Made by a program: the position numbers and the translations under genes. Below, piece by piece: positions 4,300-55,414 of a stretch of DNA of 64,000 nt (its first letter is position 1; each line of letters starts with the position of its first letter). Source of the stretch: Octopus vulgaris. Lineage: Eukaryota. The notes under the pieces were generated by a model. That model did no database searches, had not been told where the DNA came from, and saw only the letters and a list, made by a program, of their open reading frames with translations. Location of the stretch: the NCBI GenBank assembly GCA_951406725.2, contig OX597814.1, positions 155,124,001-155,188,000 of the forward strand. The letters are read 5' to 3'.

Positions 4300-4990
4300 A
4301 AAATGGAACAAAAACGCAATAGATGGCATTAAATCGTTCGGACAGATAGACAATAAAAAGGCGGACAAGAGGAACAACTATTAGGACAGGCAAAAAGACG
4401 GGTTATTCTTGGCTTTCTTTCATCAGTCACGTCTCATAAGGCACGACCATTTCGGGCGGTTACACTTGAGATGGTTCGATCTGGTTGTCCCCCAAAAAGT
4501 CTAAGCTAAGAGCATTAAGCCCCTTTGTAAGAAAGCTAGCGAATGTGTACGGGAAGAAAGACAAAAAACAGGCAAAAAAAAGAAAAAAACCTGAGAAATT
4601 GGTACACAATTACGAATACAAACAACAAGAAATAACAACAGGCGTCTTTCGCCTGAGAACGAATCAAATTGAGCTGGCGTGTAACAACTGAAAGCCTAAA
4701 GGCAGGAACAGGAGAGATGGGCAAAAGATTTGTTGGCGCTCGGCAGTCAGGCTAAGAAAGAAAGATCATGACACCGGTCACGTGGAAGGAGGAGCGATGG
4801 GTAGAGGAGCGGCAGGATTGAAGGAATAGAAAAAAAAAAACAGAGACAAAGAGAAAGGTACAGGGGACATAAACTAGTGGGAAATGGGGGAGTTAAAGAA
4901 AGAGAGGGCCAAGAAATGTGAGAGAGGGGGAGCGAGAAAAAGGAAGAAAAATGAGAGGGTGAATAAAAGATAAGAGTAAGAGTCGTACAA
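4300..4990 (-). mobile_element. Penelope-associated repeat (family P-like)
   Basis: tcatcag...atttcg block, ggtcacgtg motif and purine-rich tract, as at 16400-16890 and (inverted) 54930-55410. Confidence 0.4.
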
Positions 4991-16399: not shown

Positions 16400-16890
16400 A
16401 TACATGCATATATGGGCACAGGACGTCAAAAAAAAAACGTTAACAAAATGAAGAACGAGAACATGGAAACGAACTTTTTTCGAACGAAAGGAACAAATAA
16501 AGAAACGAGACAGGCAAAATCTCTTCATCAGTTGTCCCCTGTTTTATCTACTCCGCGTTTCGAACGTTGAGACAAGACGCGACTTCGTTAAAGGAAATTA
16601 AATAAAATTTGGGATTTGCGGAGTATTAAAGTGGTAACAAAAACAGGACAGTGAGAACAAAACAGTAAAAAGAAACGGTAGGGGCTGTTAAGCCATAACG
16701 AGGTGAAGTGGTGAACGCTGGAGAAACGAGCTTTGTCAGGAGATAGGCAAAAGTGTGTATTGTCTCTTGTAAGACAAGGGGAAGAAAGAAAGATAGCCGC
16801 TGGTCACATGTGAGCAACGGTAGAGTCAAGGAGGAAGAGTGAGGGAGAGAGAGGGAGAGAAAGAGAACGGTGAAGAGGGAAGAGAAGAAT
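16400..16890 (-). mobile_element. Penelope-associated repeat (family P)
   Basis: Similar to 53830-54050 and to the reverse complement of 54930-55410, which flank the GIY-YIG fragment. Confidence 0.55.
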
Positions 16891-17985: not shown

Positions 17986-18640
17986 TAAGCGTAGGAATGG
18001 CTGTGTGATAAGTAGCTTGTTTACGAACCACATGGTTCCGTGTTCAGTCTCACTGCGTGGCACCTTGGGCAAGTGCCTTCTACTATCGCCTCGGGTCGAC
18101 CAAAGCCTTGTGAGAGGATTTGGTTGACGGAAACTGAAAGAATCCCGTCGTATATATGCATATATATAAGGCGGCGAGCTGGCAGAAACGTTAGCACGCC
18201 GGGCGAAATGAGTAGCCGTATTTCGTCTGTCGTTACGTTCTGAGTTCAAATTCCGCCGAGGTCGACTTTGTCTTTCATCCTCTCGGGGTCGATAAATAAA
18301 GTACCAGTTACGCACTGGGGTCGATGTAATCGACTTAATCCGTTTGTCCGTCCTTGTTTGTCCCCTCTATGTTTAGCCCCTTGTGGGTAATAAAGATATA
18401 TATATATATGTGTGTGTGCGTGCATATGTTTGTGTATCTGTGTTTGTTCCCCCCAACATCGCTTGACAACCGATGCTGGTATGTTTACGTCACCTTAACT
18501 TAGCGGTTCGGCAAAAGCGACCGATAGAATACGTACTAGGCTTACAAAGAATAACTCCTGGGGTCGATTTGCTCGACTAAAGGCGGTACTCCAGCATGGC
18601 CACAGCCAAATGACTGAAACAAGTAAAATAGTAAATAGTA
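17986..18640 (+). mobile_element. SINE family A with a nested family B SINE
   Basis: A head 17986-18150, B copy 18168-18395 inserted in the internal TA tract, A 3' domain 18430-18640. Confidence 0.9.
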
Positions 18641-20049
18641 AATAGTATAGTAAGTCTACTTGACCAATGATGATCTAAGAATATACAACAAATTAATGAC
18701 GACGGCACACTACCGCCACTAACAACATTAAAGAAAGCAAACTAACTAACCAAAATACAAAATCTTATTGAATACTGGAAATTGATGAGCAGCTTTGTGG
18801 ATCAGAAGAATAAGATCCTTATTTGTCACAAAAAACTCGAGTTCGAATTAATATATACACATCGTGAGGGCCGCTTCAGAAAATTAACATGTGCTTGATT
18901 GTTACGCAATTTATCATACGCAGCTCGGGATCAAAATCGGAGTTCGAAATCAGACGGCAAAGTAAACTTTGCATCACTGGAAAAAACTATTATTTTTTAT
19001 ATTTGTTTATTTGTATGACAGTTGACAAAGTGTGACATTCACTACATTAAAATTAAAAAAACCCAAAAAACTGCCATAACTGTCTAAGAGGAAGGAAGGA
19101 AGAATCTACAATTAATAGGATTTCATCAGAGTAGAGTTCTGATCCGAATGCGCACGACTAAGTGGAACTTAGAGCAGCCGGGTGATTTTGCAAGCATACT
19201 CTCGAAAACCATACAGAGTTCATTCTACAGTATTCCGAGGTCTGCTGTTTGCTTGGGTTGGATCGAACTTACCTCTATGTGATTGCGAAGCGAGCTTCTT
19301 GACTACACAGTCATAGTTTATCATAGATAGACTTTCCATTGCTTTACTCAGAATTTGCAGGTGAGACACAGTGATATTAGGATTTCGGACTGACAGCTAA
19401 TGAAACATCGTTAATCTCTATGCTTTTGTTCCATACAGTTGGCAACTGACAACCTAATTAGGAAATGTGGCAATTAAAAAATCTCACTACAATACTGGCG
19501 AGGGATACAACAAAGAGTTGAAAGCCTTTCGATCGGTCATGTTTGACAGCAAATGCAAGCACATGGAACGGTAATAGATATAATCTCATAAAAAGATCGA
19601 CCAATCAATTGCTACATGTAAAAAATAAAAAAAGCTATTATGAAATTTGACTAAACTTAATAGTTCCATGATCTGCAAGTTCCATGATCTATACTCGAAA
19701 TAAACCGAACCTTCTACTTAATTTCAAGGTCAGATTGTTCCATTACCATTGAACAATCTCGATCGCGTGTTTTTCTGAAACCGAAACCATGTAAAATTAT
19801 GGGCTCCACTAGATTGACTACTCGTGATATACTGCACAAAAACACTTACGTGCAAATTTTTAGAGTTACCAGACATTGCTTTACAGTGAGTCTTACACAG
19901 ATTTCTTATGATGAAGCTTGAAAATGTAAGATGAGCTAATGACCTACAATAATTACGAACATATATGTGTGACTGTGTGCATGCGTGTACATGTACGCAG
20001 CCACCGGCCCACAGTCGACGCTATGGCGACTGTACGCAGCCACCGGCTC

Positions 20050-20288
20050 GGCTCGGAAGAAGGGGTCATATGGAATGGTCCCCTCGTTCACCAGACTTTT
20101 CTCCCCTTGATTTCTTTTTCTGGGGTATGTTGAAAGAGAAAGTTTACTCAATAAAGATTACAGATTTAAAACACATGAGAGAACGCATTACCAGTCAGTG
20201 TGCTGAACTTGATGGCAAAGTAGACTTATTTAATCAAGTTCACCTGAATTTTGCAAGGCGCGTCAAGTTATGCATTGAAAATGATGGG
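20050..20288 (+). pseudogene. Tc1/mariner-superfamily transposase C-terminal fragment
   Basis: GRRGHMEWSPRSPDFSPLDFFFWGMLKEKVY...RRVKLCIENDG matches the WPPRSPDLNPLDFFLWG motif. Confidence 0.9.
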
Positions 20289-21393
20289 GATGCTAACATC
20301 ATTACGCTTTACAAAAACAAAGGTGACCGTGGTGATTGTATCAATTACCGTGGAATATCCCTTCTAAGCACTGTTGGAAAGGCCTTTGCTCACATTATCC
20401 TGTCCAGGCTACAACTGCTTGCTTCTCGAATTTATCCTGAATCCCAGTGTGGCTTTAGAAGAAGCAGATCAACTATTGACATGATATTCTCCATACGCCA
20501 ACTTCAGGAGAAGTTCAGAGAGCAGAAAATGCCATTATATATGGCCTTCATTGATCGGACAAAGGCCTTTGACTTGGTATGTAGAAAAGGCCTCTACATC
20601 CTGCTCCAAAAAATCGGATGTCCACCAAAACTGCTGAGGATCATCAAAACTTTTCATGATGATATGCAAGGTACCATACAGCACAATGGTTCAACATGAG
20701 CCGGCTTCCAAATAAAAAACGGGGTAAAGCAAGGTTGTGTCCTTGCTCCTACATTATTTGGCATCTTCTCGCTGCTGCTGTCACATGCCTTTGAGACATC
20801 AGATGATGGAGTGTTTCTGCACAGTAGAAGTGATGGGAAACTATTCAATCTCTCGCGTCTACGTGCCAAGACCAAAATCAGAAGCGTCCTGATCAAGGAG
20901 ATGCTATTTGCTGATGATGCCGCTCTGGTATTACGCACAGAATAAGCCCTACAAAGGCTCATCAACTGTTCTGAGCAAGCATGTGGCAACTTTGACTTAG
21001 TTATCAGCCTCAAGAAGACCAACATCATGGGTCAGGCTACATCGGACATCCCAAACATACATATTGGAGACCACAGACTACAGGAGGTGGAGAAGTTTAC
21101 CTATCTTGGCTCTACCGTCACTTACAATCTATCCCTTGATGCTGAGCTCAATATACGCATTGGCAAGGCAGCTGCTGTGATGGCCCAACTCTCCAAACGG
21201 GCATGGGACAACAATAAGCAGGCCAAGACCACAAAAATGAAGATTCACCAGGCATGTGTACTTAGCACACTACTGTATGGAAGTGAGACTTGGATGCCAT
21301 ACACACGCCATACGACGCCATACGTCGCCTAAATATCTTTCACCTGCGCTGTCTCCGGAATAGGATAGGACTACACAGCCACAGCAGGAGATG
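20289..21393 (+). mobile_element. RTE-clade (BovB-like) LINE, 5'-truncated reverse transcriptase, disrupted
   Basis: DANIITLYKNKGDRGDCINYRGISLLS, PESQCGFR, GVKQGCVLAPTLF, LFADD, FTYLGS, LLYGSETW and terminal RIGLHSHSRRC; premature stops and an internal deletion. Confidence 0.95.
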
Positions 21394-24340: not shown

Positions 24341-24653
24341 ACCAACTCCACCAGCTGTCCTGCCAGTCCACATATTCTACTATTTATGTACTAGGATGTT
24401 TTTCTTTAGATGTATTAAAATGTATTTACAACATGCCGTCTTAAAGAGTGACGCAGAAGATAATTTTATAGAAGGTACTTTATTCCTGATAAAGGGTCAG
24501 TATAATCATGACTAGAATACTGTTGATCAAAGATCTACTCAGTTAAAGATGAATGGGGTTAAACAACCGTGATAGTATAAGCAAAACCAATGATTTCACA
24601 TATTAGCACTCTTAAATTTCATCATTAGAATACTATTTCAATGAATACTATAT

Positions 24654-25060
24654 AAGGCGGCGAGCTGGCAGAAAAGTTAGCACACCGGAGGAAATGCTTA
24701 GCGGTTTTTCGTCTGCCGTTACGTTCTGAGTTCAAATTCCAACGAGGTCAACTTTGCCGTTTATCCTTTCGGGGCTGATAAATTAAGTAGCAGTTACGCA
24801 CTGGGGTCGATGTAATCGACTTAATCCGTGTTTGTCTGTTCTTGTTTGTCCCCTCTGTGTTTAGCACCTTGTGGGTAGTAAAGAAATAGGTTTTTCGTGC
24901 CGCTACATTTTGAGTTCAAATTCCGCCGAAGTCGACTTTGCCTTTCATCCTTTCGGGTCGATAAATTAAGTACCAGTTAAGTACTGGGGTCGATGTAATC
25001 GATTTAATCCCTTTGTCTGTCCTTGTTTGTCCCCTCAATGTGGGCAATAAAGAAATAACT
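24654..25060 (+). mobile_element. SINE family B, head-to-tail partial dimer
   Basis: Full copy 24654-24890 followed by a second copy lacking the head. Confidence 0.9.
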
Positions 25061-29779: not shown

Positions 29780-31315
29780 CAGTCGTGTCCAATGATTTTG
29801 GCAAAAGCGTTATTTTGCATCAAAAATATATAAATATGCCTATCTAAGGCAAAAGGTCGATTTGTTTGAGCGCGTACGTGTATATTAGCGAAGAATAGTA
29901 ACACACTTGAACCATATGAAAAATAATAAGCCGGTACAGTTATTCATGTTCCTCTCTGTATTTGCAGTAACGATCCCAATTTTTCGAAACGTCCATTATT
30001 TGTTTAGGCATGCTGGAAACCAAAGATTTTGTCAGTTCTATGTTTACAGGCCTCCATTTTTGCTGTACAAGAGCTTTCAATTGGATTTTTTCTATCAACT
30101 CGATTTTACGGATAGACTACAAATTTTCAATAGGATTTAAATCTGGTGAATTTCCCGCCCACGGCTCCAAAATTTCAGTACCTTTATCTCCAAGATACTT
30201 TTTAATCTTTTTAGCAGTGCGGCAAGCTGCTTCACCTTGTTGAAAAATGCAAGTTTCTTCGTCAAACTGTCTCTCAATGGTTGGAAGGAGATGGTTTTCA
30301 AGGATATTTTGGTACCATATGGAATTCATATAAGTTTTTTTTTGGCATAACTGACTGTGATTCAAAGCCTTAGGATAAAAAGCAACCCCACACATGAATG
30401 GTTTCGGAATGCTTGATTGTGAACACGATACAGGCCTCATCATAGCGTTCACCTTGTCGCCTTCTTCCAGATATCCCAAACAACTGAAATGTTGCTTCAT
30501 CAGAAAAAAAAAATCACTTTGTCTCATTGTTCACTAGACCAATTTTTATATTTTCTGCAAAACAAGCCTGTCAACGTTTCTCATGGACAGAAAAGGATTT
30601 TTTGCAGTACTCCATGAAGCGAGACCATTGTCAAGAAGTCGTCGTCAAACAGTCCGAGCTGAAGCACTGACACCGGCTGATTTGCTATCTGTTTGCTGCG
30701 GGCACTTCGATTCCTCAATGAATTTGTCACTAAAGCCCTACCTTGGCGGTCAGAAGACAAACGCTGACGACCAGGGGCCTACTTCACCGTCATGGATCCT
30801 GTCTCATTGAAAGTTTTTTTTTTTATAATCCCGTTTAGTTATTTTCAGGTGCAATGCCTCTAGGAACAATGTCCTGTGTTGTTAGGCCATTTTGATGGAA
30901 AGAAATTATTGGCTGACGCTGTTCTTCTGCCAGTACCATCCCTGCCAAAAAAAAGAAGAAAAAAAAGAAAACAATTGAAGTGTTTGTGAGAAAAAAGAGC
31001 ATTCATTAATTAAAAAAATCAATCATAAAAGGCTCATGACATCATGACATCATAATTTACTCATTGTTTGCATGCGATTCCAACTTGAAATCATGAAGAA
31101 GAATGTGATTTCCACTTGTAGGAGATATAATCAATTCCGCAAACAAATGATTATTTGCAGTATCTATTGGTTTTTCAACAGTTTTTTTTCTTTCAAATCT
31201 TATTGGATACCAGATAATCTGTTAAAATAATGATAAAATCAATACCATTCACATGATATTTCACATGAAATAGTAAAAAAAAAAACGTGTTTGCTAAAGC
31301 CATTGCCCATGACTG
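29780..31315 (-). mobile_element. Full-length but decayed Tc1-like transposon
   Basis: TA-flanked TIRs cagtcgtgtccaatgattttggcaaaagcgtt / aacgtgtttgctaaagccattgcccatgactg; minus-strand CIFQQGEAAC and WAGNSPDLNPIENL. Confidence 0.92.
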
Positions 31316-31712: not shown

Positions 31713-31716
<4 letters not shown>

Positions 31717-32002
31717 TGAAGTATATTTGCCGCCTAAATGTGGCTAACCCTTTGCATCGTTCCCATCTCGAACCTGACGGGATATACACGGACCCAAGTT
31801 TCTAAGTATTGACCCAGGAACTCGGGTCCATGTGTATCACCTCAGGCTGGAGATGGGAACGACGATTTGAAAATACTGATTTGAAAACACAGATAGTGTA
31901 TCAATAGCCAGCTGAAGGAAATGTCTTCCTGGGGCTACAAGCTACAGTAGCTTCGACCCGTAAAGGGTTAGTCACATTTAGGTGGCAAATATACTTCACG
32001 AT
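31713..32002. mobile_element. Fold-back MITE with about 40-bp TIRs and an internal hairpin
   Basis: atcgtgaagtatatttgccgcctaaatgtggctaacccttt pairs with aaagggttagtcacatttaggtggcaaatatacttcacgat. Confidence 0.8.
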
Positions 32003-32724
32003 GTCGTGCAGCTACTGTTTATAACTCGCGCAGCGATTTATTATATTTATATATACATACACACAAACACACACAAACACACACACGCATATATATATAT
32101 ACACACACATATATATACATATATTTGCACATAAGCATAAATAAATATGTACATACGTGCGTGCGTGTGTGTGCGTGTGTGTATGTCTGTATATCAGTGT
32201 GTCTGTGTGTCCATGTGTTTGTGTTTATAATATGTACGTTTTTTCGCTAATGTCAGACATGATTGGTGGTACTGGTGCCCGGGTAAAATACGTCTCTCTT
32301 TATCCAAGTGTATAATCCTAATGTTGGCCATAAATGCCAGTATATATTAGTGGATTTTATTGAGAGATTACATAAAACAATTATATATATTGTATGGGGG
32401 TCGTCATCAGTCATGTCTGCATGCTATTTTTGACTATGTTGTGTATTTACGTTGGGAGTGGCATAGATCAGTTATGCTTGTATATAACAGTTTGTCGAGG
32501 GGTGGCCATAAGCTAACAGAATTAACGATATCTGTCGCAGTCTCTGTCAACCTATCTACATATACGCTATCATATGTCTTTGCCTATCCATCTGTCTTTC
32601 TCGCTAAATTACTCTCTCTCACTCTCTCTCTCTGCACGTCTGTTCACATACATTTGTGTACGTGCATGTGTATATTTTTTGTGTGTATGTGTATATGTGT
32701 ATGTGTATATACACACACAGACAT

Positions 32725-34003: not shown

Positions 34004-35109
34004 CATATACACAACTTATAAATAAGGGCAAACGAAAAAAATGTTCTAATGCCAAATATGCCGAAATTAGACACATAGTCTATAACCATATAGTTTATCA
34101 CAATACGCACGCTACTCGAAAAAGGTCGACAGAAATTTCTAAAATATTCCATTATTACCATATCGCACCGATTTCAGGTATATATATATATATTATGTAA
34201 TATATATATTATATAATATATAATTTAGATATATTTTTACTATTATTACTGTATGAATTGTGAGTGTATATGTATGCATGTACGATGTATATATATATAT
34301 ATGTATGTATGTATGTATACGATATAAATATAAACATAGAACATTATGCGTGCATGCGTGTCTGACACTGCTCGTGATCAAAACACTAATACCACCCAAC
34401 ATAGCAATTCAACTTGTCCCATAAGTGATTTTGGTATGGCAGTAGGAACCATCGCTAAGTCTCACACTGTTTCATCAAAAGTATTGCAACGTCGATAGTG
34501 GCAGAAGTACAGGACAGTTTTATTGTCATCCAACTTCCTGCAACGGTGTGTCACGGTAGAAAACATATGCTGTATTCTAAATACATTTGTGTAGTTTGTC
34601 AGGCGTTACTGAACTCATAGGAAGAAAACAAATGGCTAGTGAAGAGAAAGAGAACGCCGTTTCATACCTACCAAAAAGAAAACAACAAAAATACCAAATA
34701 ATAAGTAAAAAAACAACAACAAAAAACAAAAACAAAGCGTCAGTCAACAAAGAACTCAATAAATAAATAAATACATTCAATGAAGAATAATTTGTACCAT
34801 GTCAAAGCACTGGAAATCCAGAAATTGGATTACGTGCGTGACGTAAAATATTTGTTTTCAGTGCGAATAAAGCACCTTGTGGTTAAAGTATATCAATTCA
34901 AACATCTCTCCCATCTAAAGATAGCGCATAATTTTCAAGGAAGGAACGTGTGCTATACTGTACATCGCGTGTGTTTATTTCTAGAGTGCAACCATTTTAT
35001 ATGATAAGCTTTCATTTTGTTCTGTGCCCTTCATTCAGTCAACAATCGAAGGAAAGAGAATTTTAGAAATATACTTAAAGCGAGTAGTCACATCAAAGTG
35101 GCAGGTAAA

Positions 35110-35360
35110 TGCTACTACTAGTTTAATCCAAGGTGGATTCTTCGCCAGGTGGTTTTCGGTGCAAGCTCTGCACCCTTTATATACAATATATCTCTAGCAG
35201 GGGAGAGCGAACCCCTATTATTACACAGCAGCTGACAGGATCGCGGGACCGGCCAATTTCGAGCCATTTGGCTCTCATCAGCTGCACGTGCCTGCGCAGT
35301 GGAGTAATAGCAAAGACTCACTTCAGCAAGCTTCTGCGAGCTTGTACGAGCTTCTGCTAG
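35110..35360 (+). mobile_element. GC-rich Helitron-like element
   Basis: caagcttctgcgagcttg hairpin shortly before terminal CTAG|T; internal gcagctga/tcagctgc stem. Confidence 0.35.
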
Positions 35361-35553: not shown

Positions 35554-35633
35554 TGCGAATATTTGGAAGCTTTAAAGAAGTCTATCTATCTATCTATCTA
35601 TCTGTCTCTCTCTCTCTATATATATATATATAT

Positions 35634-35667
<34 letters not shown>

Positions 35668-35670
35668 TAT

Positions 35671-36016
35671 ATAACATAAGGGACTAAAGCCATCTGAATA
35701 TGGCTAGGGACAGGGCAGGGTGGTGGGGGTGTTACTGTTGCATTTAGCCCCAGGCGAACATCGACGTCACCAGAAAGGCTCGACACCGTCACGGTGTCCT
35801 TAACCTGCAAAGGGAGGTAATTCCCCGATGAAGCGGAAACCACACACGGATGATGGTTTCAAGGTGTATTGCCTATCGTCGGCGTGTGGTAGGCTTCCGC
35901 TTCCTCGACGAATTCTCACTCTGCAGGATATTCATATATAGATTTTCAAGCAAAATACATTTGCTGATTTCGAAAATCTGTTCGAAAGCAATAATAATTC
36001 TCTAAAAGAGATATAG
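35671..36016 (-). repeat. Inverted 346-bp copy of the 360-bp monomer
   Basis: Reverse complement of the monomer lacking 14 nt (cgagcagttactgt); two substitutions at 35851-35852. Confidence 0.97.
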
Positions 36017-37458
36017 CTTTCGAACAGATTTTCGAAATCAGCAAATGTATTTTGCTTGAAAATCTATATATGAATATCCTGCAGAGTGAGAATTCGTCGA
36101 GGAAGCGGAAGCCTACCACACGCCGACGATAGGCAATACACCTTGAAACCATGGTCCGTGTGTGGTTTCCGCTTCATCGGGGAATTACCTCCCTTTGCAG
36201 GTTAAGGACACCGTGACGGTGTCGAGCCTTTCTGGTGACGTCGATGTTCGCCTGGGGCTAAATGCAACAGTAACACCCCCACCACCCTGCCCTGTCCCTA
36301 GCCATATTCAGATGGCTTTAGTCCCTTATGTTATCGAGCAGTTACTGTCTATATCTCTTTTAGAGAATTATTATTGCTTTCGAACAGATTTTCGAAATCA
36401 GCAAATGTATTTTGCTTGAAAATCTATATATGAATATCCTGCAGAGTGAGAATTCGTCGAGGAAGCGGAAGCCTACCACACGCCGACGATAGGCAATACA
36501 CCTTGAAACCATGGTCCGTGTGTGGTTTCCGCTTCATCGGGGAATTACCTCCCTTTGCAGGTTAAGGACACCGTGACGGTGTCGAGCCTTTCTGGTGACG
36601 TCGATGTTCGCCTGGGGCTAAATGCAACAGTAACACCCCCACCACCCTGCCCTGTCCCTAGCCATATTCAGATGGCTTTAGTCCCTTATGTTATCGAGCA
36701 GTTACTGTCTATATCTCTTTTAGAGAATTATTATTGCTTTCGAACAGATTTTCGAAATCAGCAAATGTATTTTGCTTGAAAATCTATATATGAATATCCT
36801 GCAGAGTGAGAATTCGTCGAGGAAGCGGAAGCCTACCACACGCCGACGATAGGCAATACACCTTGAAACCATGGTCCGTGTGTGGTTTCCGCTTCATCGG
36901 GGAATTACCTCCCTTTGCAGGTTAAGGACACCGTGACGGTGTCGAGCCTTTCTGGTGACGTCGATGTTCGCCCAGGGCTAAATGCAACAGTAACACCCCC
37001 ACCACCCTGCCCTGTCCCTAGCCATATTCAGATGGCTTTAGTCCCTTATGTTATCGAGCAGTTACTGTCTATATCTCTTTTAGAGAATTATTATTGCTTT
37101 CGAACAGATTTTCGAAATCAGCAAATGTATTTTGCTTGAAAATCTATATATGAATATCCTGCAGAGTGAGAATTCGTCGAGGAAGCGGAAGCCTACCACA
37201 CGCCGACGATAGGCAATACACCTTGAAACCATGGTCCGTGTGTGGTTTCTGCTTCATCGGGGAATTACCTCCCTTTGCAGGTTAAGGACACCGTGACGGT
37301 GTCGAGCCTTTCTGGTGACGTCGATGTTCGCCTGGGGCTAAATGCAACAGTAACACCTCCACCACCCTGCCCTGTCCCTAGCCATATTCAGATGGCTTTA
37401 GTCCCTTATGTTATCGAGCAGTTACTGTCTATATCTCTTTTAGAGAATTATTATTGCT
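36016..37458 (+). repeat. Tandem array of four near-identical 360-bp structured monomers (retrozyme-like)
   Basis: Exact period of 360 (starts 36016, 36376, 36736, 37096); only four substitutions seen; ends in (TA)n. Confidence 0.97.
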
Positions 37459-37473
37459 ATATATATATATATT

Positions 37474-37532
<59 letters not shown>

Positions 37533-37841
37533 GTATGGAACAATACACTTGAATACAGAACTTAACACCAGTTTATAGTAGTAATCAACCGTTACTATTA
37601 TGAATAACCACATATACACAAATATTCACAAACATATACATATACATTTGTGTGTGCGTGTATGTGTGTGTGCGTGTGTGTGCATGTAAATATATGAGTA
37701 TTGATAAAAAGGTTATTAGATATTAGGGTACCTAAAGTTTGACTTGCAAAGTACTCTTCACTATTGTAACTTGGAGAATGAATGCTCGATATACACACAC
37801 ACGCACACACACATACACACACACACACGCATGTATGTTTA

Positions 37842-38743: not shown

Positions 38744-39278
38744 CATACATACATACATATAAGCATACATACATAAATACATAAATACATACATACATAC
38801 ATACATATATACATATATACAAGCATACATACATACATACATACATACATACATGCATACATACATACATACATGCATACATACATACATACATACATAC
38901 ATACATACATACATACATACACACACACATACACACACACATACATACATACATACATACATACATACATACATACATGCATACATACATACATACATGC
39001 ATACATACATACATACATATTTACATACATAAATACATACATACATATTTACATACATATATACTCAGATACTTATGTATGTATGTATGTATGTATGCAT
39101 GCATGTATGTATGTATGTATGTATGTATGTATGTATGTATGTATGTATGTATGTATGTATGTATGTATGCAGAAAAGGGACGCTTCTGAATATGTCAGGA
39201 GAAACAGAAAAACGACGGGGTAGAAACAGAAAAAGAGAAAAAGAAGTTTGTATGTATGTAAGTATATGCATATATATG

Positions 39279-39313
<35 letters not shown>

Positions 39314-39926
39314 TTATGTATCTTTATATGTGTGATATTCATGCGTGCGTAGGGGTGGGGATGCATGTGGGTAGTTATTTCTAGCTTAGTTTCCATCATT
39401 TTATATACAGCTCCTTGAAAGGACTCTTCAAAATAGTACGATTTCTTGTTATTGCGTCATATACTGTATATGCATACATACATACATACATCATACATAC
39501 ATACATACATACATACATACATACATACATACATACATACATACATACATACATACATACATACATACATACACACACACATACACACACACATACATAC
39601 ATACATACATACATACATACATACATGCATACATACATACATACATGCATACATACATACATACATATTTACATACATAAATACATACATACATATTTAC
39701 ATACATATATACTCAGACACTTATGTATGTATGTATGTATGTATGCATGCATGTATGTATGTATGTATGTATGTATGTATGTATGTATGTATGTACGTAT
39801 GTATGTATGTATGTATGCAGAAAAGGGACGCTTCTGAATATGTCAGGAGAAACAGAAAAACGACGGGGTAGAAACAGAAAAAGAGAAAAAGAAGTTTGTA
39901 TGTATGTAAGTATATGCATATATATG

Positions 39927-39961
<35 letters not shown>

Positions 39962-40177
39962 TTATGTATCTTTATATGTGTGATATTCATGCGTGCGTAG
40001 GGGTGGGGATGCATGTGGGTAGTTATTTCTAGCTTAGTTTCCATCATTTTATATACAGCTCCTTGAAAGGACTCTTCAAAATAGTACGATTTCTTGTTAT
40101 TGCGTCATATACTGTATATGCATACATACATACATACATCATACATACATACATACATACATACATACATACATACA

Positions 40178-40230
<53 letters not shown>
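38744..40230. repeat. 648-bp tandem duplication containing opposed (CATA)n/(TATG)n tracts
   Basis: Unique block 39169-39477 recurs at 39817-40125. Confidence 0.95.
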
Positions 40231-40241
<11 letters not shown>

Positions 40242-40363
40242 TACATATATATATAAATGTGCGTGTGTTTATACATATTTATATATATGCACGTATGCTT
40301 CTATGTATATATACGTATATATATATACATATATGTATACATATCTATCTATCCGTCTACCTA

Positions 40364-40415
<52 letters not shown>

Positions 40416-40704
40416 CACATACATATATGTATGTATGTATGTATGTATGTACGTGCATGTGTGAATGTGTGTGTGTTAAGCAAAATATTGAACACCTAGG
40501 GTAAGCAAATCGGTAGCATTAGTTGTCTATACCTACTGGAATTGTTGAATATATAAAGAGACTGTTTCTCTGGGATTGGTCAAACTGATGTACACTACGA
40601 CGTAGACATTCAAATGAGTATCCAGCAAGGTTCGAAAATGTAGTAAGTCTATGGAGAAATAGTAATATTTGCCCTATTTATATATCTACTGCATAGGTTA
40701 CACA

Positions 40705-41794: not shown

Positions 41795-42330
41795 ACACAC
41801 ACTCGCACGCACACACGCACGCACGCACACAGTCACGCATTCACAGATGCGGCACATACACCCCCACCCATGCAAGCATCAACTGTAAACTTGCTGTCAC
41901 CTATAACGAAGCTTACTCCGATGCATAAAGCACCATTCTTCACTCTTCCCTAAATTACTGGACACAAACATCATTCGCATATAACTTTGACTCTTCGTGT
42001 CGTGCCTACGCTGCTTTCCTAAACAGAGATCTTGAAATCAACCTTCATTAGGAACATGACTATTTTGTCTTATTCTACTACGCGGAAGATGCATTCAATG
42101 CTTATATAAAAATATTGATATTAGTCTACATCAGTTGTTCTCAACCATTTTTTATCTGTGGTCTCCTTTGATTCCTAATTCCTAGAGGTTAACCCTCAAA
42201 GCCATTCGGTGTTTTAAAAATTCTCCTAATTTTTTTATGATTAAATATTATTAGGATCTGTATAAAAAATAAAATTGCTAAAATATCTTGTGTATTATAG
42301 AAAAACAATTCATTGCTCATAAACTTTAAA

Positions 42331-42760
42331 TAGGCGTAGGAGTGGCTGAGTGGTAAGTAGCTTGCTTACCAACCATTGGTCTCGGGTTCAGTCCCGCTGC
42401 GTGGCACTTTGGGCAAGTGTCTTCTACTATAGCCTCGGGCCGACCAAAACCTTGTTAGTGGATTTGGTAGACGGAAACTGAAAGCAGCCTATCGTATATA
42501 TGTATATATATATATATATATATGCATGTGGGTGTATATATTTGTGTGTCTGTGTTTGTCTCCCCAACATCGCTTGACAACCGATGCTGGTGTGTTTACG
42601 TCCCCGTCACTTAGCGGTTCGGCAAAAGAGACCGATAGAATAAGTACTAGGCTTACAAAGAATAAGTCCTGGGGTCGTTTTGTTAGACTAAAGGCGGTGC
42701 TCCAGCATGGCCACAGTCAAATGACTGAAACAAGTAAAAGGGTAAAAGAGTAAAGAGTAA
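42331..42760 (+). mobile_element. SINE family A, full length
   Basis: A-box tggctgagtgg, B-box gggttcagtccc, CORE-like actttgggcaagt, 3' domain and aaagagt tail repeats. Confidence 0.92.
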
Positions 42761-46968: not shown

Positions 46969-47516
46969 TTGCATCCAGCAACTCGTGTGTGTGTGTGTGT
47001 GTCTGTGTCTGTGTGAGACGAATATGGATTCAGCAAAATACTCGTACACAGTTATTCGTTCAATATTTTGTTGTATCAGGATTTATGAAGAAAGTGTGGT
47101 GGTGATGGTGCTGGTACTGGTGTCTCGATTTGCTGAACAGCCTGTTCGATGAATATTATTATAGTAGTGGACCTAGTTTGTGTAGAGCTTCTGCCACTCT
47201 TTCGTCCTTCAGACTTGTATTGGCTTAGTACAACAATTACCGCGAGCCCGATATTTAATGAACTGTTGGTTTTGTATGAAGTTACCTTCTCTTAGATGAA
47301 CAACTAAAGAGGTCTTATCTCCTGAGGTGTTTATTAGTGACATTCTGGAGGCAACTTCATGACATACTGGGATTTTTATTGGGACCCTATTAGGTGCTTC
47401 TATTCCCGGGTCAGAATAGACCTGGGAACAATAATGGTTAAGAGGTGGTACGACACTCCTCAAATTCTTAAATTTCCGAACCAGGGCCTCACTACCCATG
47501 ATATATACACACACAT

Positions 47517-48230
47517 AAGGCGGCGAGCTAGCAGAAACGTTAGCGCGCCGGGCGAAATGCTTAGCGGTATTTCGTCTATCGTTACGTTCTGAGTTCAAAT
47601 TCCGCCAAGGTTGACTTTACCTTTCATCCTTTCGGGGTCGATAAATAAAGTACCAGTTTCGCACTGAGGTCGATGTAATCGACTTAATCCCTTTGTCTGT
47701 CCTTGTTTGTCCCCTCTATGTTTAGCCTCTTGTGGGTAGTAAAGAAATATGTATACACACACATGATACACATATATACAAGAATATATTTATTTATTCA
47801 CAAGAACTCATATTTATATATAAATACAAGGCAGCGAACTGGCAGAATCGTAAGTACGTTGGGGAAAATGCTTGGCGGCATTTCCTCCGTCTTTACGTTC
47901 TGTGTTCATCATTTCGTACCAGTTGAACACTGATGATCGATGTAACCGACTTACTCCCTGCCCCTAAATTTCTGTCCCTGGGCAAACATTTGAAATTAAT
48001 ATTAGAGTATGCTTAAGGCGGCGAGCTGGCAAAATAATTAGCACGCCGGACAAAATGGCTAGTGGCATTTCATCCGTTTTCACATTCTGAATTTCCTTTC
48101 TGCCATGGCTAACTTCGCTTTTCATCCTTTCGAGATCGATGAAATAAATACCGCTTCATCACCGGTGTTGAGGTGATCAACTTACTCCCTCTCCGAAGTT
48201 GCTGGCCTTGTGCCAAAATTTGAAATCAAT
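47517..48230 (+). mobile_element. Cluster of three family B SINEs
   Basis: aaggcggcgagct-type heads near 47517, 47828 and 48015. Confidence 0.88.
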
Positions 48231-51899: not shown

Positions 51900-52500
51900 A
51901 AGTGTCAGTTGTCTGCAGCCAGCAGACTAAGGTGACACAGTGTGTAGTGTGCTTCAAGAACCTTGCGAAGAATTCTTGCAGTTCCAAGCAATGCTGATTT
52001 TTGTAGGTGTTTTACTATCATGGATAATTTCCAGATGTCCTTGGCCTGGTAGTGCTGCCAGGGGGCGCTACCTGTTCGAGATAATCTCTACAGGCACGGT
52101 TGTGCTGTTAGATGGACTTGTTCAAGGTGCACGCAGAGTGACGAAACCGTTCTGCACGCACTCGTTCAGTGTCCGAGCTTGCTGACTTGTGATATCGAAC
52201 AGCTGCTTTCACGTGTGAGACGGATCCGTCTGTCAGCTGAGTCTATAGTAATGATTGTCCCAACTACCACCTTCAATCGGGCAGGCAAGGCAGTTTTCCT
52301 TTGCCAGGTGGCTGCGGCGAAAGAGGTTGTTTGGTGGACAAGGCTGAACGGCATGAGGACAGATACATTCCTCTTTGGTAGAGCTCTCATTGACTTCTTC
52401 AAGTTTCACCTGAAAGAGAATTGAAAGTAGAGAAGCAAGTACTGTCCTCGAGTGAGTTTATTGAAAAATGGGTGAAAGTTGCGAAAATGGCAAGAGTGGA
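51900..52500 (+). pseudogene. L1/Tx1-clade LINE C-terminal zinc-finger region
   Basis: GALPVRDNLYRHG...CSRCTQSDETVLHALVQCP...AKEVVWWTR. Confidence 0.8.
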
Positions 52501-53828: not shown

Positions 53829-54418
53829 TATATGTTGCAGAACGTCACAAAACGTAAACAACATGAAATACGAAAACGACATGGATTACGAAATACGGAA
53901 GGCAAACCTGGGTATGCGAACAACGAGAGAAACAAATGGAAAACAAGACAAATAACACGAAGAACGACACTTCATCAGTTGTCAGCTGTTTATTTACTTC
54001 ACATTTCGAGCAATTCACTACAATATGTCTTCGAAAAACTGTTGCTCCCGCGGTATGGATATATGCACATACATATATATATATATGAATATATATATAT
54101 AGGTGAGAAAGTTGGTGTGTGAAAGCACGTGGTTGAATATATAGAAAATAGTAAAAAGTGAAAAAACTACAGAAGGCTTGTTTTAAAAGGTTAAAAAATA
54201 TATTTGAGTCATTATGTCAGAAGAATGTTGTAAAATTTTTTCATACATTGACATTTTTGAAGAAATTACCGGTTTCGTGTTAACTTTTCAAATTTCTCAA
54301 AATATCGTGTTATGTCTTCGTTATGAAGTGTAAAGAAGAGTTCCAGGTAAGGGGAGGTAATAAGTGATTTCTTCCGGTGTAAGGGGGGTAATCGCTTTAT
54401 ATTTCTTGTCCCTTTTAT

Positions 54419-54924
54419 TTAATGGGGTGAGTTTCTCTGTATAAGAATGTTAGAGTAGTTAAGTTTGGGCTTATATTTTTCAATGAAGAATGTTTCCTTG
54501 TTTAGTCTAATTTGTGTTGGTGTTCCAATAGTACATTGATAAAATGGAAAGATTAAAAATTGTGGTAGTAGTTGCTTTGCGCATTTCTCAATATGCTTAC
54601 TAAAGGGTATCATTCTGTATTCTGGGAATGCAATCTGTTGTCGATGCAGTGTGCATCTACGTCTGAGTGATAGTCCAGTGGACCCCACGTAGTTTTGGTG
54701 GCAGCCCGAGCATCTTATGACATAAATTATGTTTTCAGAAGCACAAGTAAAATTAGATTTGATCTGGAATTTTTGTCCCGCTTTGAAGAGGAATTCTGAT
54801 CCTTCTAGAAGGTTTGGGCATGTTGCGCAGTTTGGTCTACCACATTTTTTTACTTTTGCATCCGTAATTTCAGAAAACAATTTTGCCTTTGTGAGAATCT
54901 TTTTAAGTGATTTAGGTTGTTTGT
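54419..54924 (-). mobile_element. Penelope-like element GIY-YIG endonuclease fragment (Neptune-like Cys-rich linker)
   Basis: Open frame KQPKSLKKIL...CGRPNCATC...CASENIIYVIRCSGCHQNYVGSTG...LRRR..LH...E..FIEKYKPKLN. Confidence 0.92.
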
Positions 54925-55414
54925 AGCTTTTACCCTATACTGTTCTCTCACTCGTCCTTTCGTTTTTCTCTCTCATCCTTTCTCTCATTCTTTTTTCTTC
55001 CCTTCACCGTTTTCTATCTGTCTTTCTCTCTCCTTCTTCCACCTTTACTCCCTCGCGTTGCTCACATGTGATCATCGTCCATCTTTCTTTTTCTCACATG
55101 ATCATTTTTCTTTTCCTTCAGTCTGTCGCACAGACCAGACGCATTCTTACCTTTTTCTTCTCGTATCTTTTCTCTTAGCAAAGAATATTCTTTCAGCGTT
55201 TGTTACCTTACCTCATCTGGCCTAACGGCACTCCCTGTATGTTTTTGTTTGGTTTACTGTATGTTTCCACTGTCCTGTTTTGTTACCAACTTTGACTCTC
55301 CGCAAATCCCGAATTTTATTTTGGTTCGTGGGAGCAACTGTTTTTCGAAGACACATATTGTCGTGAATTGCTCGTAATGTGCAGTAGCTAAACAGCCGAA
55401 AAATGATGTATATA

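Follow-up and report, generated by a model that had tools for sequence, protein, structure and literature searches.

The core of the locus is a 1.79-kb insertion, situated within the 64,000-nucleotide stretch of DNA that was analysed as a whole (the window). It consists of an inverted copy followed by four head-to-tail 360-bp units, and it lies inside a TA microsatellite. Positions in the repeat are numbered such that monomer position p corresponds to window position 36016+p in unit 1. The insertion and its flanks are organized as follows:

35617..35673, no strand: (TA)n tract, left flank and likely target
35671..36016, minus strand: inverted copy, 346 nt, monomer 333-360 followed by 1-318
36017..36376, plus strand: unit 1 of four head-to-tail 360-bp units, GC 46.4%
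36377..36736, plus strand: unit 2, identical in sequence to unit 1
36737..37096, plus strand: unit 3, with TG changed to CA at 36973-36974
37097..37458, plus strand: unit 4 plus 1-2 nt, with C changed to T at 37250 and 37358
37458..37536, no strand: (TA)n tract, right flank
36333..36378, plus strand: "tail" of 43-46 nt between two kinds of 3' end, position given on unit 1 (term as defined in PMC8557442 and PMC11167929)

The four direct units are at least 99% identical to one another, and the unit is non-coding, with a longest stop-free frame of 90 codons. Both outer ends of the insertion are plus-strand 3' ends, and they differ in extent. The inverted copy terminates at a short 3' end (monomer 316-318) without the tail, while unit 4 terminates at a long 3' end (monomer 361-362) with the tail, so that the right end is 43-46 bases longer than the left. 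At the inner junction the inverted and direct copies have one G in common, and the presumed cDNA joint is placed at 36016. The direct array begins at 360/1, within 1-3 nt of the phase of its own end. A target-site duplication is unreadable within the TA sequence. All five copies at the locus carry A192, and because this is a minority variant of the family, its presence in all five suggests that they derive from one template molecule or source locus. The inverted copy also carries G138A, which breaks a predicted pair.

Sequences belonging to this family occur widely in public sequencing runs, with 65-95% of the unit's words present in 20 of 24 listed runs (10 studies, three organism labels). 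None of the 20 is recorded as an RNA run, although 14 are guessed to be. Four of the 20 were aligned to the permuted unit, all as contigs, which cannot separate a circle from a tandem array; the contigs of two runs guessed to be RNA give no transcription, strand or end information. X1, a DNA run that may be the source of the window itself, places 1559 contigs on the permuted unit, of which 657 are at 99% identity or more, 560 at 95-99%, 281 at 90-95% and 61 below 90%. The joint from the end of one unit to the start of the next is found in all four runs examined, and the tandem form is thus not an assembly artefact. The 360 cycle is closed within one contig in X3 (390 letters), X6 (390 letters) and X19 (359 letters). 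One set of X19 contigs enters TA after monomer 362, perhaps at the same locus, and an inversion joint different from the one described here is present in X1. Over monomer 232-339 the summed X1 contig depth, which is not a copy number, is approximately three times higher than over 16-27.

The contigs also document variation with respect to the predicted fold. G replaces A192 in approximately 92% of the X1 depth and in the contigs of X3, X6 and X19, and the pair is kept as G-U. A188T and T59A occur together in one X19 contig, and both are common in X1; jointly they convert a predicted U-A pair (P 0.38) to A-U. Pair-breaking variants are represented by G203T (X6) and T342A (X3, depth 2). Loose ends, mostly single low-depth contigs, lead to further subfamilies (18 of 99 were examined by eye). 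In these, the loops and the C-rich tract vary. Their helix closing on GGGGCU has a 5' strand that departs from that of the present copy in two further ways, with G-U pairs preserving the pairing. One X3 subfamily contig (a loose end behind 36317, depth 3.9) is missing approximately 11 nt, located immediately upstream of the 3' strand of helix 251-258/325-332; the gap takes in a stretch that is conserved in both families of the window. By eye the helix is kept, and the contig would argue against the missing stretch being essential. A degenerate 22-nt motif was also sought elsewhere and has one match in metagenome contigs, one in genome contigs and none in viral contigs; both matches cover the motif only and were rejected as chance.

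The plus-strand monomer has a predicted folding energy of -119.8 kcal/mol (z -5.2) and the minus-strand monomer one of -115.6 kcal/mol (z -3.9), and 0 of 100 dinucleotide shuffles are as good on either strand. Folded as a circle, the monomer has a z of -4.5 (40 shuffles) and a branched minimum free energy (MFE) structure that is 63% paired. The initial annotation had proposed that the monomer folds extensively and in a strand-specific manner. The extensive folding is borne out, but the minus strand also folds well and the difference between strands over the whole monomer is not significant (z -1.6). The predicted elements on the plus strand are these:

36026..36065, plus strand: predicted 5' hairpin (monomer 10-49), P 0.84
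36075..36204, plus strand: predicted interrupted rod of 130 nt (monomer 59-188), source of the folding excess
36207..36223, plus strand: predicted 7-bp hairpin (monomer 191-207), P 0.98
36225..36378, plus strand: 3' domain conserved with the sister family, with predicted helices 251-258/325-332 and 284-289/296-301 and a terminal hairpin at 338-350

The folding excess sits in the rod, which has a z of -8.5 on the plus strand and -5.6 on the minus strand (strand difference z -2.8); its two arms form an inverted repeat of 68% identity. Monomer 189-362, the 3' half, is no better than shuffles in this copy (z -0.9). Every helix named in the earlier manual pairing can be located where it was drawn. 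Well-defined elements are the long interrupted stem (P 0.99 at its base and middle), the hairpin at 191-207 (P 0.98), AGCCAT/ATGGCT (P 0.93) and AGATTTTC/GAAAATCT (P 0.84). AGCCT/GGGCT (0.33), GGTGA/TCGCC (0.38), ACAGTAAC/GTTACTGT (0.33) and the TTCGAA alternative (0.14) are weak in the ensemble. A kissing-loop conformer had been suggested as well, but its two hairpins both come out at P 0.0, and relative to the rod the branched form loses 13.8 kcal/mol, with the energy of the kiss uncounted. G-U pairs, put forward as a plus-strand sign of RNA-level structure, number 8 of 110 on the plus strand versus 8 of 109 on the minus strand. The change in copy 3, described as a single G-to-A substitution that converts G-U to A-U, is a two-base change from TG to CA (36973-36974). 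The MFE pair U214-G238 does become A-U, but the ensemble prefers G238-C309 (P 0.64), which the change would break, and its effect on pairing is ambiguous. In all, 18 differences were checked against the fold, and the events at well-paired positions comprise three that keep the pair, three that break it and one that is ambiguous.

A sister element is present at 31813-32044, approximately 4 kb from the array, as detected by nhmmer with the array masked (E 4.6e-9). The insertion to which it belongs is somewhat longer:

31715..32048, plus strand: whole sister insert, between microsatellites (nhmmer core E 4.6e-9)

This insert starts with a 41-nt inverted piece (31715-31755) of its own 3' part, identical at 38 of 41 positions and ending at the short 3' end, the equivalent of monomer 314-316. 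The direct part contains the rod, the hairpin, the 3' domain and a tail of 42-48 nt, and does not start in phase. The flanks are a (TA)n tract and an imperfect TA/CA tract. The pattern of two ends is thus found in both of the insertions seen whole. The sister element has a folding z of -8.8 on the plus strand and -10.9 on the minus strand, and the better folding of its rod on the minus strand is a further point against strand-specificity. Identity between the two families in the 3' domain is 58%, and some unpaired stretches are conserved between them. Neither a profile nor a covariance model detects further family members in the 64-kb window. The best non-self covariance hit, at 35067-35163 on the minus strand (13 bits, E 0.3), was considered as a hammerhead-bearing relative and rejected: it has no nhmmer support, its combined alignment score places it anywhere from 37th to 573rd among 1016 tiles depending on which of three scoring schemes is used, and the E of 0.005 obtained for it is post hoc. 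This segment lies just downstream of the neighbouring hammerhead, and its order of motif and helices resembles that of the unit's 3' domain by eye.

The plus-strand consensus fold of the two families has 26 pairs, of which three are changed on both sides, five on one side (all C-G/U-G) and none broken. Its energy is -19.8 kcal/mol, versus -11.7 kcal/mol on the minus strand. Column shuffles, in which dinucleotides are not kept, reach the plus value in 0 of 300 cases, the minus value in 7 of 300 and the strand difference in 10 of 300. Of 35 pairs predicted on the monomer by itself, 19 are kept in the sister, which is a chance rate (P 0.57). In the aligner's register, helix 251-258/325-332 is kept at 8 of 8 pairs and helix 284-289/296-301 at 5 of 6, and the others are lost. 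The short 3' helices carry changes on both sides between the families, and covariation could be assessed across these two families only, where the both-side changes (P 0.18-0.70) are too thin for significance. In each family the short end is located at an AU, within a small predicted hairpin's loop. The reading of the plus-strand unit as a structured RNA has support, because both outer ends are plus-strand 3' ends and the modelled two-family consensus fold is better on that strand.

The anatomy of the insertion is that of a Penelope-like element (PLE); its inverted copy and TA target, like the sister element, do not figure in the initial annotation. As described in PMC8557442, PLE insertions form partial tandems, with an inverted, 5'-truncated copy and, at one end, a tail of 30-40 bp. 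Two reverse transcription start sites delimit this tail, which PMC11167929 characterizes as PLE-only. The four anatomical features that were compared are all present: tandem or partial-tandem copies; an inverted, 5'-truncated copy by the 5' end (35671-36016, and 31715-31755 in the sister); a tail at one end, whose 43-46 nt (42-48 nt in the sister) slightly exceed the published 30-40; and a microsatellite or AT-rich target, with (TA)n on both sides. According to PMC8557442, Naiads target (TA)n and lack the canonical hammerhead, most Chlamys elements are also without one, and non-autonomous Chlamys elements form multicopy head-to-tail insertions. The 360-bp unit is probably a retroelement of the non-autonomous kind that relies on a PLE for copying in trans. 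It would be a passenger similar to retrozymes but lacking a hammerhead, and its fold would serve the loading of the reverse transcriptase and not self-cutting.

A mechanism can be proposed by reference to the PLE protein of the anole (PMC11167929). This protein nicks AT-rich DNA on both strands and initiates reverse transcription internally, at two sites that form the boundaries of the tail; insertion in vitro does not depend on hammerhead cleavage. The anole hammerhead, for its part, needed the PLE protein. By analogy, the plus strand would be transcribed as a multimer, and the PLE protein might, as pure conjecture, bind the 3' domain. The GIY-YIG nuclease of the PLE would then nick both strands of the TA tract. 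One nick would prime at the long start (monomer ~361) and lead to the copying of four units, and the other would prime at the short start (~316-318, in the hairpin loop) and lead to the copying of 346 nt; the AU of the short start could pair with a TA primer. The two cDNAs would be joined at 36016 via one common base. In this scheme the rod would be mainly structural and particular to the family. The PLE reading does not explain the exact in-phase start of the array.

If a partner element exists, it was not apparent in the data searched. Across 584,131 characters of published Naiad, Chlamys and Hydra data, in which wrapped lines may conceal matches, twelve probes of 9-11 nt gave four hits, each in an unrelated context. 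A comparison by eye with the final ~600 nt of two octopus Naiads shows only the arms of one hairpin in common with the unit. The unit has no match to the PLE pieces in the 64-kb window, and against the ends adjacent to a GIY-YIG fragment, at 53973-54052, the best E is 0.11-0.28 apart from TA-rich matches, which is not significant.

Several known systems are similar in part. Non-autonomous PLEs such as MRC1 and the other Chlamys passengers of Chlamydomonas are, like the octopus unit, non-coding and multicopy in head-to-tail arrangement, and the Chlamys clade also mostly lacks the canonical hammerhead and prefers microsatellites (PMC8557442). However, those passengers occur in a green alga, where an autonomous family generally has the same 3' ends, whereas the octopus unit resides in an animal-type genome, in (TA)n, with no partner found. 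Naiads (octopus families with a (TA)n preference; PMC8557442) and the anole Poseidon element PAc (PMC11167929) likewise have an inverted 5' copy, a tail at one end and a TA or AT-rich target. Naiads are similar too in lacking the canonical hammerhead. In PAc, the two internal sites where reverse transcription starts bound the tail. Both encode a reverse transcriptase and a GIY-YIG domain, whereas the 360-bp unit is non-coding and no sequence link to Naiad 3' ends was found.

Animal non-LTR retrozymes are tandem units of 150-450 bp that are non-coding and strongly self-paired, with a proposed dependence on PLEs (PMC7229834 and preprint 10.64898/2026.07.22.740005), and the 360-bp unit shows this size range, tandem form, lack of coding capacity and high self-pairing. 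However, retrozymes are defined by a type I hammerhead in each unit, and the 360-bp unit has none. Circular RNA has been shown for retrozymes, whereas the 360-bp unit is known here from genomic sequence and contigs, and its GC content of 46.4% is just above the <45% stated for them. The unit thus resembles animal retrozymes but is not filed among them, because the defining hammerhead is absent. No description of the 360-bp family, or of a hammerhead-less cephalopod retrozyme, was found in the literature searched; the family may be catalogued in Repbase or Dfam.

An alternative that we consider unlikely retains mobilization by a PLE but adds an unrecognized self-cleaving ribozyme, which would cut multimers near 360/1 to give monomers or circles. 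As a comparably unlikely version has it, an undescribed self-cleaving class in the conserved 3' domain would cut the multimer at the unit junction, replacing the hammerhead in an animal retrozyme lineage, and the array would start and end in phase because of that cut. The in-phase start is the best remaining argument for a ribozyme, since, with a 5' break at a random place, a start within 1-3 nt of the phase of the end would by our inferred estimate be a coincidence of approximately 1 in 70. Such a start is compatible with a defined RNA end, whether produced by a promoter, a nuclease or self-cleavage. The unit is like animal retrozymes in its size, its tandem form and the strength of its self-pairing (PMC7229834), A192 in all five copies points to one template or source locus, and the unpaired stretches conserved between the families could be accommodated as well. 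However, the direct part of the sister does not start in phase, and Naiads and most Chlamys elements spread without a canonical hammerhead (PMC8557442).

The searches for a ribozyme bear on the same question. The initial annotation's candidate ribozyme gained no positive support, as known ribozyme models and cores fit neither strand. An Rfam covariance search of the array region, a dimer and the sister element returned no ribozyme model to E 10, and the search of the 64-kb window returned nothing at gathering level. There is no intact hammerhead core on either strand, and the one single-mismatch hit to the pattern, on the minus strand, is matched by 16 of 200 shuffles. No strict hepatitis delta virus (HDV) fold occurs, relaxed HDV hits being found in 24 of 30 shuffles, and the patterns for hairpin loop A, twister and pistol are absent. 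These four patterns were written from general consensus features, and twister sister and hatchet were covered by Rfam only; within that scope, the fold or core of none of the known small ribozymes (HDV-like, hairpin, twister, pistol, twister sister, hatchet) was found. As a positive control, these tools do pick up a hammerhead at 35215-35299, which lies outside the repeat at a distance of 372 bp. Monomer 216-222 comes within one mismatch of the first half-core, as does the aligned place in the sister, but this degenerate hammerhead was rejected for want of a stem II plus GAAA after it. Rfam microRNA hits on the unit are below gathering scores and reflect its inverted-repeat symmetry.

It is quite unlikely that the units are instead the pseudo-LTR of an autonomous PLE, seen here as 5'-truncated terminal pieces. 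Such an origin would be in keeping with the usual 5' truncation and partial tandems of PLE copies, and 5' truncation would also give the roughly threefold higher summed X1 depth over monomer 232-339 than over 16-27. However, no ORF separates the four whole units, which follow one another end to start, and the same joint recurs in four of four runs, with single contigs closing the 360 cycle in X3, X6 and X19. No coding body appears at the 18 of 99 loose ends examined by eye, and the longest stop-free frame is the 90 codons noted above.

A purely DNA-level origin, as a satellite or fold-back repeat without RNA function, is very doubtful. The rod would then be a decayed inverted duplication, and amplification would have proceeded by slippage, unequal exchange or DNA circles. 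The arms of the rod do form a 68% inverted repeat that folds well on both strands, the 3' half is no better than shuffles, and the covariation is not significant; template switching between arms can also produce compensatory changes. However, this account leaves unexplained the two fixed ends a tail apart, which recur in a family only 58% identical, and the TA targeting. The consensus fold also favours the plus strand (a difference reached by 10 of 300 shuffles), and the short 3' helices show changes on both sides.

An endogenized viroid-like circular RNA, replicating from RNA to RNA now or once and fixed by a PLE reverse transcriptase, is highly improbable: 360 nt is within the viroid size range and the unit is non-coding with a long rod, but the circular fold is branched and 63% paired, no ribozyme is found on either strand, diverged sister families reside in the same genome, and the one conserved motif has no match in viral contigs. 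A tRNA-derived SINE was rejected, there being no tRNA, no A/B box pair on the plus strand and a single two-mismatch pair on the minus strand, as was a Helitron, whose ends of type TC ... CTRR are not seen.

The surrounding window is AT-rich (GC 25-42% per 2 kb) and dense in microsatellites. A hammerhead pattern scan of the whole window gives seven cores, of which only that at 35257-35281 on the minus strand is singled out by a 6-bp stem II. It belongs to the control hammerhead at 35215-35299 (minus strand), which is of type I, with an intact core, the 6-bp stem II and a GAUC cleavage context, and occurs as a single copy in the window; it scores 28.3 bits against Rfam HH9 (E 3.5e-5, targeted search), below the gathering score of 52. 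At 53972-54008, 16525-16562, 4420-4454 and 2573-2609, all on the minus strand, GAAA lies upstream of the hammerhead first half-core. The same reversed order is found at the 3' end of octopus Naiads marked "HHR_half_core", and it is possible that the arrangement is a conserved PLE end motif.

A 5'-truncated, PLE-type GIY-YIG fragment is located at 54419-54934 on the minus strand (Pfam E 0.001, below cut-off). Its presence counts in favour of the PLE reading. It is C-terminal and Neptune-like, because CX4CxxC lies upstream and a stop follows soon after the GIY-YIG domain. Near it are two 82-nt segments (53973-54052 and 55327-55408) that are 85% identical and in opposite orientation. Other coding remnants include a broken reverse transcriptase fragment at 19953-21332 on the plus strand (Pfam RVT_1, E 9.7e-14), a zf-RVT fragment at 52053-52424 on the plus strand (E 4.8e-6) and, at 30117-30530 on the minus strand, a frame that resembles a Tc1-type transposase by eye, with no Pfam hit. 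At least two interspersed repeat families of ~250 bp occur in many copies at 70-90% identity (18152-18647, 47501-47755, 42330-42759, 24641-25041 and others), and these presumably resemble cephalopod SINEs. Additionally, ~2.5 tandem copies of a microsatellite-rich segment of ~648 bp, identical in their unique parts, occupy 38807-40475, as either a local duplication or an assembly artefact.

How PLEs recognize their own RNA, and how Naiad-type elements manage without a hammerhead, are given as open questions in PMC8557442. A 360-nt passenger that is young and abundant, has two ends mapped and comes in several diverged families would be a minimal template on which the signals for reverse transcriptase binding and start could be approached, by covariation and in vitro. 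If the unit does cut itself, it would represent a new ribozyme class; if it does not, it would be an unannotated yet expected kind of repeat. Retrozyme searches based on the hammerhead would miss part of such a class.
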